IMG/VR virus record: IMGVR_UViG_3300037493_005685
Coordinates: 31,499 to 95,498 of that record
Direction: 5' to 3' (one strand)
Source of the DNA: a virus
Length of the DNA stretch: 64,000 nucleotides
The translations under genes and the position numbers were made by a program. This document shows, piece after piece, positions 24,259 through 45,909 of the stretch (position 1 is the first letter of the stretch; the number at the start of each line of letters is the position of its first letter). The notes beneath the pieces were generated by a model. That model did no database searches. It saw only the letters and a list, made by a program, of their open reading frames with translations, and was not told where the DNA came from.

Positions 24259-24322
24259 CCAAAAGAAAACCCCAACAGCATTAGTGCCATTGGGGCCTTC
24301 TAGGCTACATACGAGAGGCCAA

Positions 24323-24406
24323 TACGAGGAGCGGGGGTCGAACCCGCACGCCTTTACAGGCAAGAGATCTTAAATCTCCTGAGACTTCCAATTCCTCCAT
24401 CCTCGC
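24323..24406 (-). tRNA. tRNA-Leu (anticodon TAA)
   Basis: GCGAGGA/TCCTCGT acceptor, GGAGA-TTTAAGA-TCTCT anticodon arm, long variable arm, GCGGG-TTCGACC-CCCGC T arm; CCA not encoded. Confidence 0.9.
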
Positions 24407-24505
24407 AAAAACCCCAACAACCCCCGCACCGCTCAAAGTAAAGGGGCCATTGGAGCAAGCAGTTTAGTGCGTCATACTCAGGACGCTTGACCAGCTGCCA
24501 ACTGG

Positions 24506-24982: not shown

Positions 24983-25012
24983 GGTGTCTCCTTTGATTGT
25001 CCATTACTTTAG

Positions 25013-25354
25013 TGGAGCTGCCGGTAATCGAAACCGGGTCCGATACATCGTCTTCTACACCCTCGTCCACACGCTTGGTGGCATCTCTCTTGGTACGCTA
25101 CCTGCCACGATAGCGTATCAGTTTTCTCTCGTATCTTAGCCAACCATACTGAGAGCCTTTGGTTGAAGCGCCCTGGTTAATTACGCCACGTCAGCCCCTA
25201 CAGGGGGAAGAGACTGGGTGACGGAGAACGGCTCACGCCGCTTTCAGGTACTCTTGCGGTTCGGCATTTGTACGTTGACACTTCTTTACCCAGTAAGCGT
25301 CATCTGGGGCGTGCGAGCATAACTTCAGTTGTACCGTCAAAACCTTTCAGCCCC
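25013..25354 (-). ncRNA. ssrA: tmRNA, tag peptide (A)AEPQEYLKAA*
   Basis: 5' GGGGCTGA, 3' GACCCGGTTTCGATTACCGGCAGCTCCA, G3:U pair; tag ORF 25233-25265 after AAAT resume context. Confidence 0.92.
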
Positions 25355-42546: not shown

Positions 42547-42693
42547 TGGGCAAGCCTTCTGTCTATGGTGTGCCGGGGACTGCCCTCCCTCCTGTAAAGG
42601 GGCAGCCCCGCGACGAAGAGCGCTATAAGCGCGTACACAAAGCTCCTCCCAAGTCTCCCACTAAAAAAACCAAGTAGCCCTTGGTATAACTAC

Positions 42694-42891
42694 ATGTCCA
42701 TAAAATCTGTCTCTCCGAGACTCATGCTCGCTGTTCTTGATAGCGCTAAGCACAAGGACACCTTTCAAAAGACCATGCTTAAAACTATGCGCCGAAGAAT
42801 GGAGAATGGACGCTTAACCGACGCAGACCTTTTGTGGATACACTCGTCATACGTGCTAGAGCTTCAGGCTGTACCTAGAAAAACGAAGTAA
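42694..42891 (+). CDS. small hypothetical protein
   Basis: 65 aa; TTGGTATAAC just upstream. Confidence 0.55.
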   Translation: MSIKSVSPRLMLAVLDSAKHKDTFQKTMLKTMRRRMENGRLTDADLLWIHSSYVLELQAVPRKTK

Positions 42892-42908
42892 CTTCGTTAT
42901 CAAACAAC

Positions 42909-43162
42909 GCTTCACCCATTGAGGACATCTGGTTACCGCTGGTCTAACCAGCTGCCCGATCACAGTGAAGCTCTAGCACTCTTTAAAAGTCTCACACGTA
43001 TTTCCTCAACGACCAGAGGGCGACGCAGTAACTGCGTTGTTTCTGAATGAAGGAACTGGAATGAGCAGATTTGCTGAAGCCACGGCTCTTCGGCAAAGCC
43101 TGTCATAGGTGTGAGTGCAGAGGTTGGGGTACGGGGAAAAAAGACTTCCCCGTGCTCTGACC
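42909..43162 (+). ncRNA. candidate highly structured non-coding RNA with pseudoknots
   Basis: At least 7 complementary segment pairs, with G-U pairs favouring the + strand; intergenic. Confidence 0.55.
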
Positions 43163-43207
43163 GATGCTTATACTCCTCTTCTGGCATCTACTACAGAAAG
43201 AGGACAC

Positions 43208-43588
43208 ATGACTGAGACAATGTTGGACACCTGGTATATCCGCCTAACCACGTGGTACCTCGCAAAGCCTTGGTACATTCGCCTTGCGTGCATCGGATTG
43301 GTCGTTGTAATCGTTATCCTTTTTTTGCTGCGCTTTGTTGCTAAAGGGGTACCAGAAGAGTACGCGCAAACTGCGAACGTATCTCCTGTACTAGCAGACC
43401 CCACAAGCGCAAACGAGGAAGAAGAGGCTACCAACGCCGAGACGACCATCGCTATGAAAAAGAAGATGATTGAACAGCTTAAGGAACGTAAAGAGGAACA
43501 GGATAAGTTTGCACAACAGGCATCAGAAATCACAAACGCAGAACATATGGGAGACTTGCATGAACTTCGTAAGAAATTTAATCTTTAG
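43208..43588 (+). CDS. membrane-anchored coiled-coil protein (i-spanin-like architecture)
   Basis: GAGGA SD; N-terminal TM plus helical C-terminus. Confidence 0.65.
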   Translation: MTETMLDTWYIRLTTWYLAKPWYIRLACIGLVVVIVILFLLRFVAKGVPEEYAQTANVSPVLADPTSANEEEEATNAETTIAMKKKMIEQLKERKEEQDKFAQQASEITNAEHMGDLHELRKKFNL

Positions 43589-44063
43589 TCTAGGTGTAAC
43601 ACTGGTATGTTCTTCGGCATATTCTCAGGAGATGCCGTTGGAAGAGTGGTCGGATTACCCGAGTCAGATTCCTATTGGACCCATGCAGAATCTGCCCGAG
43701 GGTACGGTACAGACTATCAACAAGGTGGAGTACACCTGTTACAACATCCAAGAGTACAAGGACATCTTACTCTTGGCCAATGACTACCAGTCTTTGTACG
43801 ACTGGCGCGTAAAGACGGATGCGCTTGTTCTCTCATGGCAGAACCTAGACAAGGTATACCTAGAGAGACTAGCAAACAGGAAAGAACAAATTGACACGTT
43901 TAAGGTGGATAGAATCTACATCCTTAAGCAGCTTGATGACAACCGTAAGTACATTCTGGACCTCCAGAGTCGTAAAGAAACCACAGTACTCGGTTGGAAA
44001 ATAGTGTCAGCGATAGAGTTGGTGGGGATAGTCGCTCTGTCTATAACTGCGGCAGTTAAATGA
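43560..44063 (+). CDS. exported coiled-coil protein with C-terminal hydrophobic anchor (spanin partner-like)
   Basis: Signal peptide ...SSAYS-QE; overlaps preceding gene. Confidence 0.65.
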   Translation: MNFVRNLIFSLGVTLVCSSAYSQEMPLEEWSDYPSQIPIGPMQNLPEGTVQTINKVEYTCYNIQEYKDILLLANDYQSLYDWRVKTDALVLSWQNLDKVYLERLANRKEQIDTFKVDRIYILKQLDDNRKYILDLQSRKETTVLGWKIVSAIELVGIVALSITAAVK

Positions 44064-44187
44064 CGCGGCCGTGCTATTCAAACACCGAGGGCCATACAAC
44101 AGAAATAAATTGCGCGGAATATACTGGGAGGCTATCCCCACGTTTCCTCCCGAAATGCGCTTCGTTAAGGGTCAAGGAATAATCACC

Positions 44188-45030
44188 ATGCCAGAGATTA
44201 AATACGCCGTAACCCACCCAGGGCCAGCGCACAGGGACGATACCCTGGCCATTGCGCTTGCCTTGAGTCTAGAGGGAGACATCCCGGTGTTCAGACGACT
44301 GCCCACAGAGGAAGAGCTGTCCTCTCCCTGTGTGCTCGTACTAGACACCGGAGAGAGGTATGAACCGGAGCTCAATAACTTTGACCACCACCAATTTGAC
44401 GAGGACGCCGAAGAACCCAACTGCGCCATGTCCCTGTACTTGAAGTCGCGTGGCTTAGAAGAAATCTTTGACCTGCAGCGTTGGTACCTACCGACTATTC
44501 TTCTGGATGACCGGGGACCATATGCGACAGCCAAGATTCTGAACATCAACCGTTTTCCCTACGAGCTTGTTGACCCCATTGGTACAGCCATCGTTAACTT
44601 GTTCGGCTCTTACTTCGGACAAGTTCTTCCCGAGACACTCTTGATACTCAGAACAATTGGTGAACAGATTCTATCCGCTACAAAGAAGTTTGCCGACCAA
44701 ATCTTCCATCTTGAACGTGTCTGCGAAGTCATCCAGATTGACGGGTATAAGGTTCTAGTTCTACGTACTTCGGATATTACAGCCTCACAAGAGTTTAGGA
44801 ACCGTAGTCATCCGGATGCTATCGCCTCCATCTCTTGGGACAACCGTGGTTCAGGCTGGTCTATGTACCGGTTCAGCCAACACTGTCCCGTCAATTTTGG
44901 AAAGCTTACGGGTAATCCAGAAGTACTGTTCACCCACCGGGATGGCTCTCTCGCCAAAACCCAACGGCGCCTGCCTATTGAAGAAGTTCTCGACCTCGTA
45001 TCTCAGAGCCTTGAAAGACCCGCAGCATAA
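44188..45030 (+). CDS. MYG1/UPF0160-like DHH-superfamily hydrolase
   Basis: VTHPGPAHRDD, VLDTG, FDHHQF motifs. Confidence 0.8.
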   Translation: MPEIKYAVTHPGPAHRDDTLAIALALSLEGDIPVFRRLPTEEELSSPCVLVLDTGERYEPELNNFDHHQFDEDAEEPNCAMSLYLKSRGLEEIFDLQRWYLPTILLDDRGPYATAKILNINRFPYELVDPIGTAIVNLFGSYFGQVLPETLLILRTIGEQILSATKKFADQIFHLERVCEVIQIDGYKVLVLRTSDITASQEFRNRSHPDAIASISWDNRGSGWSMYRFSQHCPVNFGKLTGNPEVLFTHRDGSLAKTQRRLPIEEVLDLVSQSLERPAA

Positions 45031-45094: not shown

Positions 45095-45811
45095 ATGGAG
45101 TTGTGTTTGGTTCCGCTGACACTGGACAAGTTCGAGGTTTGCTGCGTACCTACAGAAAAGTCACATCACGCATGTTGGCGTGACGCCTCTGAGGAAGTCG
45201 TAGCGGAGTTCAAAGACGGCAGCGCCTACTATCTGCCGGTCTGCAACGACCCCGAGCATGTCCGCCTCGCACAAGAAGCCAAAAAGAAACTGTTGAAAGG
45301 AGTGAGTCTAGCCGAGCTCGAGAAATACGTCGTAAAGATGCAGGTGTTCGTGAAGCCCACCGAGATGCAGACCACAAAGGTGAAAGTCATCCAGTGGGAA
45401 AACTTCAAGAAGATGCGAATGACCCTGCCCACAATCCCAACAACCCCACAGCCCAAACAGCCCAAGTATGCTAAGCAAGAACTACAGCCAGAAGTAAAAG
45501 AACCGACCGTAATTCATACTGCGTGTAAGAAGTGGCAATGGATTAACGATATTGGACAGTGGATGGACATGAAGGGTAACACCGTGTCTTTCTCCAAGCT
45601 GTCCGATAAAGAGCTCAAGCATACTGCTATCGCTATCCGTGACGCGAACTTCCAAAACCTCACCGCAAAGACCAAGTGGACTAAAGCTCTCGTGTTGGAT
45701 AGCACCGAGAGTTTTAAGTTCTCGGAAGAAGCGCTTAAAGTGGGCGCTAAGATTGCAGCTGAGAAGCTGGAAGATTTTCGCATTGAGTGCAAGCGTCGCG
45801 GCTACATCTGA
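45095..45811 (+). CDS. hypothetical protein
   Basis: 238 aa; AAGGAGG SD. Confidence 0.7.
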   Translation: MELCLVPLTLDKFEVCCVPTEKSHHACWRDASEEVVAEFKDGSAYYLPVCNDPEHVRLAQEAKKKLLKGVSLAELEKYVVKMQVFVKPTEMQTTKVKVIQWENFKKMRMTLPTIPTTPQPKQPKYAKQELQPEVKEPTVIHTACKKWQWINDIGQWMDMKGNTVSFSKLSDKELKHTAIAIRDANFQNLTAKTKWTKALVLDSTESFKFSEEALKVGAKIAAEKLEDFRIECKRRGYI

Positions 45812-45824
45812 CCGTACGGTACGT

Positions 45825-45892
45825 AGACCCCTTCCACCAATCCTCAGGAGGTGAGGGAACCATCTAACGATTGGTGGTTGGGGTCTTTTTTT
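45825..45892 (+). terminator. long hairpin terminator between convergent genes
   Basis: AGACCCC..CCACCAATC / GATTGGTGG..GGGGTCT followed by a T run. Confidence 0.6.
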
Positions 45893-45909
45893 GCCCTGAG
45901 GGCGAATCT

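Follow-up and report, generated by a model that had tools for sequence, protein, structure and literature searches.

A conserved structured RNA with UAA-triloop hairpin modules in a large uncultivated phage

The gap between two genes of an uncultivated phage contains a genuine, evolutionarily conserved non-coding structured RNA, which is a new family in that Rfam holds no match for it. The gap lies in a window of 64,000 nt, the whole stretch of DNA that we analysed (bases 31499-95498 of the 95.5-kb IMG/VR virus record IMGVR_UViG_3300037493_005685; the record is estimated to be ~53% complete). The conserved unit spans about 190 nt of the plus strand, from ~42985 to 43175. The initial annotation of this DNA had described an unassigned, multi-helix, probably pseudoknotted RNA of about 255 nt. 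All eight of the pairings that it listed can be read in the sequence, and the RNA is indeed unassigned, with no Rfam match at the gathering score and chance-level matches only at E ≤ 10. The size is revised, with about 190 nt (42985-43175) conserved and a variable accessory module before them, and the pseudoknot is not borne out by the relatives, as described below.

A conserved RNA on the plus strand of an intergenic gap

The ORF-free gap that holds the element (42892-43207, plus strand) is bounded on the left by a 65-aa ORF (42694-42891) and on the right by a gene for a 126-aa protein with one N-terminal membrane helix (43208-43588; ATG at 43208). Overlapping the latter is a gene (43560-44063) whose 167-aa product has a signal peptide and, at its C terminus, a membrane helix. 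A gene for a MYG1-family protein comes next (44071-45030; PF03690, E 1.2e-6), in line with the initial annotation, which had called it MYG1-like. All of the genes that flank the element are on the plus strand. The 126-aa/167-aa pair (43208-44063) had been called spanin-like. This likeness is limited to the overlapping gene arrangement: neither protein matches a PHROG or Pfam lysis family, the 167-aa protein has no canonical lipobox, and its homolog in the relative L089 (pair at L089:2100-2943) has a signal peptide without any cysteine.

The 65-aa protein was modelled by AlphaFold as a three-helix bundle (pLDDT 82). The model has no PDB match better than E = 1, and the protein has no Pfam or PHROG match. 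The idea that this neighbour is an RNA-binding protein was rejected on the same grounds, as the three-helix model found no informative structural match and neither domain collection recognised it. Few of the ~25 phage proteins scanned had a Pfam or PHROG match, and a blastn search for cultured-phage relatives in 50,697 deposited phage records gave no match.

The gap folds far better than shuffled sequence. On the plus strand, the 317 nt of 42892-43208 reached -120 kcal/mol, compared to -90.2 ± 5.3 kcal/mol in 100 shuffles (z -5.64), with 0/100 shuffles as good. The minus-strand fold of the same gap had a z of -2.25. At the gathering threshold, Rfam 15 matched no family in the whole window except a full-length tmRNA elsewhere (25010-25354, minus strand; 103 bits; tag peptide AEPQEYLKAA by ARAGORN). 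Relaxing the search to E ≤ 10 over 42600-43400 produced only chance-level matches, to HIV_FS2 (16.4 bits vs 44) and FsrA (13.8 bits vs 80). Over the window, ARAGORN detected nothing beyond this tmRNA and a tRNA-Leu with anticodon UAA (24322-24407, minus strand), both of which lie elsewhere. Known RNA families (tmRNA, RNase P, SRP, 6S, known ribozymes and riboswitches, GOLLD, ROOL and HEARO) were rejected as none of them scored at the Rfam gathering threshold. A retron non-coding RNA was also rejected: it requires an adjacent reverse transcriptase, and no RVT_1 match was found in the 95-kb record, which is ~53% complete.

At the protein level, a search with the MYG1-like gene found relatives of graded similarity, P0003-P0010 among them with 59-74% identity. 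Scanning metagenome and viral contigs with the alignment of these relatives yielded 87 loci. BLAST, nhmmer and our own covariance model found the element in L002 (the same locus as L003, L005 and L086), L006, L008/L009, L015 and L089 only; the other 77 loci have just the MYG1-like gene in common. Gene order is identical in all six loci that carry it, window included: the genes for the 225-aa, 181-aa, 43-aa and 65-aa proteins come first, then the RNA, and after it the genes for the membrane protein, the secreted protein and MYG1. Judged by protein identity, L006 is the nearest of the five relatives. Wider searches added little. In IMG/VR, three scans for the exact motif gave only the two contigs already known and a chance match (L004), scans anchored on the 181-aa, SLT and 225-aa proteins gave no additional contig, and two scans of 185,579 species genomes gave either nothing or 15 scattered single-hairpin matches that the covariance model did not extend. 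The carriers are a small, little-known clade of large uncultivated environmental phages. With six sequences known, every one of them from an uncultivated phage, the distribution is narrow, and this limits the immediate reach of the finding.

The alignment comprises six distinct sequences, the window and five relatives, from three sub-lineages. In this alignment, 91.6% of cells are paired. Compensatory changes occur at 14 pairs, compared to 7.7 ± 1.8 in column shuffles (0/500 reach 14) and to 1-5 in slid controls, in which partners were shifted by 1-3 columns.

Wobble pairs indicate which strand carries the structure. Among paired alignment cells, G.U outnumbers A.C by 41 to 10, and in the hairpin at 43122-62 all four non-Watson-Crick positions are G.U on the plus strand, where the minus strand would have A.C. 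Because of the covariation and this 41:10 excess, the element is best read as a plus-strand RNA, and single-stranded DNA is far less plausible. A coding region was rejected: no open reading frame across the core is common to all six sequences on either strand, and the indels among homologs are not multiples of three.

The conserved core and the variable 5' domain

The core is closed by P1, a 7-bp helix (42991-97 / 43109-15, plus strand) that is paired in 100% of cells. Three of its seven pairs have changed on both sides: P1 reads CTCACAC/GTGTGAG in four sequences and TTTGCAC/GTGCAAA in L015 and L089, and it is never broken. Within the core, a near-invariant block of 43 nt (43008-43050) is 93-95% identical to L015 and L089, while the proteins that flank the element in these two relatives are 39-61% identical to those of the window. 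The 40-nt bin at 43003-42 has a mean identity of 0.93, equal to the best of 101 coding bins in the 3.7-kb block.

This block contains an extended UAA-triloop hairpin of 11 bp with three G.U pairs (43018-43042), detected in a hairpin scan of the record. It is followed by a variable hairpin (43070-79 / 43088-97) that differs in sequence in every lineage and in which 7/8 pairs have changed on both sides. A conserved single-stranded GTCAYAG then leads into the 3' arm of P1 (43102-43115), as seen in the alignment; the accessory modules repeat a related TCACAG motif. The last hairpin of the core (43122-43162) has 17 bp, four of them G.U, and an A-rich loop. It shows compensatory changes in L002, L015 and L089, which comprise two compensatory pairs together with several changes from G-C or A-U to G.U. 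Covariation, which the initial annotation had put forward as a check, therefore supports P1, the UAA hairpin, the 43070-97 hairpin and the 43122-62 hairpin, but not the helix 42909-15 / 42965-71 or either of the two crossing pairings.

The inner core (43000-43075; alignment columns 22-75) can adopt two mutually exclusive folds, each of which is paired in 83-95% of cells. In one, two small hairpins flank the UAA hairpin; in the other, the UAA hairpin is extended and an outer helix is added. Six sequences are insufficient to choose between the two, which appear to be kept about equally. The pair of folds would be compatible with a switch as well as with a static scaffold, and the purine and pyrimidine runs of this region would also be expected to give both.

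The existence of two such folds is one reason to consider a sensing or catalytic RNA, that is, a riboswitch-like aptamer with a 3' hairpin platform or a new self-cleaving ribozyme that cuts a polycistronic message. Tandem occurrence of the modules (below) would suit such a role, as would stems that covary around invariant junction and loop nucleotides across relatives whose proteins are ~55% identical. The element resembles riboswitch aptamers in that a helix closes it, its stems covary, its junction nucleotides are invariant and a hairpin follows. Nevertheless, we regard this reading as quite unlikely. No known class was matched even at E ≤ 10; the promoter-like box described below is on the downstream side of the element, which is the wrong side for a riboswitch; no U-tract follows the 3' hairpin; and none of the downstream genes is metabolic, so that no linked gene points to a ligand. 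The ribosome-binding site is not covered in all relatives either, its sequestering being seen only in the window's own fold.

Upstream of the core, the window has a lineage-specific 5' domain (42909-42971, plus strand), in which a first helix encloses an inner hairpin (42929-51). The first helix, 42909-15 / 42965-71, had been proposed as part of the RNA and is not conserved as such: its 3' arm and the next bases are kept in L002 and L008, but the 5' arms differ there and the domain folds differently, the local hairpin alone being retained. That local hairpin (42929-35 / 42945-51) persists as a hairpin in both relatives, although its sequence is different. In L006 the 5' domain is wholly absent, and the 65-aa ORF stops a few bases before the closing helix. 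In L015 and L089, two larger modules upstream of the core replace it. The 5' domain is a dispensable extra module with the same general build as the core.

The crossing pairs from which the pseudoknot was proposed fare no better. Two of the seven positions of 42919-25 / 43003-09 are mismatched in L002, and 42939-44 / 43011-16 is down to 4 bp there; neither pairing has a counterpart in L008, and both are impossible in L006. Since the crossing pairs join the core to a variable 5' domain that is absent in one relative, the pseudoknot is unsupported.

UAA-hairpin modules at two loci

The hairpin NACGNAG-UAA-CUNCGUN recurs beyond the core. Its 16 instances, 10 of them distinct, are paired in 100% of cells. 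Compensatory change affects 4/7 pairs; the loop and the two pairs below it are the same in every instance. Because the loop and top two pairs are invariant while the other pairs covary, the pattern is what would be expected of a sequence-specific recognition site presented on a structural scaffold. A search of the window with this pattern found two sites on the plus strand, at 42882-98 and in the core, compared to 0.05 expected by chance. There are two or three copies in each relative, L006 excepted. Two loci account for the five UAA hairpins that the hairpin scan found in the 95-kb record, and all five loops read TAA, not TTA, on the same strand as the neighbouring genes.

The second locus (G000:C1:19357-19870, equivalent to L095:1144-1656) is in the same phage record, outside the window. 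It is a 510-nt ORF-free gap with a fold z of -9.2, situated between a gene for a signal-peptide SLT transglycosylase and a dNMP-kinase gene cluster. It consists of three tandem modules of ~150 nt, each closed by a helix of 17-20 bp, and these closing helices are unrelated in sequence. Every module has a UAA hairpin, a U-rich stretch, further hairpins and the shared motif CCCUCAAAGCAA, and a canonical U-run comes after the last closing helix. The locus has no match in Rfam, and no homologs of it were retrieved in our contig scans.

Two kinds of repeat were considered for these modules and rejected. In a CRISPR array or a solitary CRISPR repeat, repeats of 24-48 nt alternate with spacers of similar length; here, the conserved unit is a hairpin of 13-17 nt, spaced by 131-166 nt. 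REP- or MITE-type repeats are inconsistent with the presence of only five UAA hairpins, at two loci, in 95 kb, and with module closing helices that share no sequence; the 185,579 species genomes likewise held no copies, apart from hairpin matches at chance level.

The two larger modules that stand in place of the 5' domain in two relatives (L015:1587-1880 and L089:1586-1878) each have a long closing helix, a UAA hairpin and TCACAG. Against the core model, the first of these larger modules scores 29 bits (E about 3e-6), a match that is weak yet significant and suggests an origin of the modules by tandem duplication.

The symmetry of these hairpins raises the question of whether the DNA itself is the functional site. 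It could consist of palindromic operators to which a dimeric regulator of the adjacent promoter binds, or it could be an origin or a packaging signal. With two or three copies per locus, the UAA hairpin forms a palindrome of 15 bp that is nearly perfect, and the centre of the 3' inverted repeat is about 40 bp upstream of the predicted start, the distance at which class II activators bind. However, the mismatches are G.U on the plus strand only, without exception in the window's 3' hairpin and for the most part in the alignment. The asymmetric loop is in the sense orientation in 5/5 of the UAA hairpins of the record, and the closing and variable helices change their sequence completely with complementarity kept, unlike a protein-binding palindrome. 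A DNA-level role is therefore highly improbable. A palindromic operator, with equal symmetry on both strands, was specifically rejected from the 41 G.U to 10 A.C cells and from loops that all read TAA in sense. On this comparative evidence, the element appears to be neither a protein-coding stretch nor a double-stranded operator.

Both loci are at operon boundaries next to genes for proteins that act on the envelope, with the SLT transglycosylase upstream of the second locus and the membrane pair downstream of the element described here. It is conceivable, though we give it little weight, that this placement is meaningful and that the UAA-hairpin modules form a new functional class of RNA, either a sensing switch or a self-processing ribozyme, which times or coordinates late and lysis genes; as a whole, this proposal is doubtful.

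Transcriptional context and a tentative role

Directly after the 3' hairpin comes an extended -10-like box, TGnTATACT (43165-43174, plus strand), which is a candidate promoter by consensus match only and lies 33 nt before the ATG at 43208. The box is invariant in all six sequences, in an otherwise variable spacer, and is perfect in L002 (TGTTATAAT). It precedes the next gene's ribosome-binding site by 12-35 nt across the six sequences. It has no recognisable -35, and as a repeated phage-wide promoter motif it was rejected because it is not enriched. No promoter-like site was found in 42600-43207 by a simple consensus scan in which both hexamers were required.

A scan of 42892-43207 likewise found no terminator-like site. 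G+C-rich stem-loops are present (43122-62 and 43018-42), but a U run 0-2 nt after the stem is absent, and the tail after 43162 is not U-rich. Elsewhere in the window, a long branched hairpin with seven U (45826-45893) lies between convergent genes that end at 45811 (plus) and 45910 (minus). By its sequence this is probably a canonical intrinsic terminator that would work in both directions, and the host's terminators would therefore be of the usual kind.

What, then, might the element do? Our leading proposal, which we hold tentatively and with less than even confidence, is that the upstream transcript carries the element as an RNA module in its tail, at the boundary between two operons, and that the invariant hairpin of this module docks a trans-acting factor. 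As the element has no recognisable promoter of its own, and in L006 starts a few bases after the upstream stop codon, we infer that it is transcribed as the tail of the upstream unit (the 225-, 181-, 43- and 65-aa genes). The covarying helices would then present the invariant AG-UAA-CU hairpin tip as a docking site for a phage or host protein, and the docked factor would set the 3' end, the stability or the read-through of the upstream message. The downstream cassette, comprising two membrane or secreted proteins and the MYG1-like exonuclease, would start from its own extended -10-like box. Two observations weigh against a 3' module of this kind. The hairpin at 43122-62 is without a U-tract although the phage appears to use canonical terminators elsewhere, and the modelled 65-aa protein has no informative structural match, so that no binding partner can be named.

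The same promoter and terminator scans bear on another reading, in which the element is a trans-acting small RNA of ~180 nt. Such an RNA could be stand-alone, with a promoter of its own that went unrecognised, or be processed out of the long transcript. The 3' hairpin would stabilise it, and it would reach its targets in the phage or the host through base pairing or through the sequestering of a protein. The fold is compact, stable and conserved, flanked by A-rich sequence on the 5' side and with a strong hairpin on the 3' side; its invariant single-stranded stretches could be seed or binding sites, and the 17-20-bp closing helices at the second locus look like processing stalks. We nonetheless consider a small RNA rather unlikely, as the scans found neither an upstream promoter-like site nor a downstream U-tract terminator, the upstream ORF of L006 reaches up to the core, and the most conserved part of the element is a hairpin and not a single strand.

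Returning to the module at the tail of the upstream transcript, several known systems offer partial parallels. T7 RNase III sites and REP/BIME elements also lie in the sense orientation between transcription units and form stable hairpins, one of which has 17 bp here. However, they are simple hairpins, without the branched junction and the invariant recognition hairpin that the phage element has. REP elements are also numerous and alike in sequence; the phage record has only five hairpins, located at two loci, and the closing helices differ in sequence. An RNase III site is about two turns of mostly regular double-stranded RNA, compared to 17 bp with four G.U pairs at 43122-62 and 17-20 bp at the second locus.

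By analogy, the element may also be likened to the antitermination RNAs of lambdoid phages (nut boxB and HK022 put), which are short, conserved, sense-strand operon hairpins found at two places per genome. These are recognised by a protein or by RNA polymerase, and are situated just downstream of early promoters and upstream of terminators. The element differs in that it has no evident upstream promoter or downstream terminator, and its fold is much larger. GOLLD and ROOL are similarly orphan structured phage RNAs, but both are in Rfam and neither matches the element.

Around 8,500 candidate structured RNAs have been mined from IMG/VR, with a mean length of 67 nt and none longer than 151 nt (PMC10690425). 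Those candidates share with our element the occurrence in uncultivated phage contigs only and the covariation, and it is in the published sizes that the element differs from them.

Conserved RNA elements are easily overlooked in metagenomic phage genomes, because annotation there mostly proceeds one protein at a time. In this case, the 43-nt block is better conserved than most of the surrounding coding sequence, covariation is clear, and the modular build recurs at a second locus. The element is therefore a concrete candidate, with defined boundaries, for a new RNA of the factor-binding, the sensing or the self-processing kind. Should it control the transition from the virion genes to the downstream cassette of envelope and nuclease genes, it would add a new case of late phage genes being controlled at the RNA level.

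The position of the first UAA hairpin is a separate observation. This 7-bp UAA-triloop hairpin (42882-42898, plus strand) has as its loop the stop codon of the 65-aa ORF (42889-42891), and the protein in the window ends in K-T-K. The stop codon of this ORF forms the loop of the first UAA hairpin in 5/6 loci (the window, L002, L008, L015 and L089, not L006), and in L015 and L089 the ORF reaches about 40 nt into the first RNA module. In a phage with its own tmRNA, the termination of translation within a hairpin loop may be more than coincidence.
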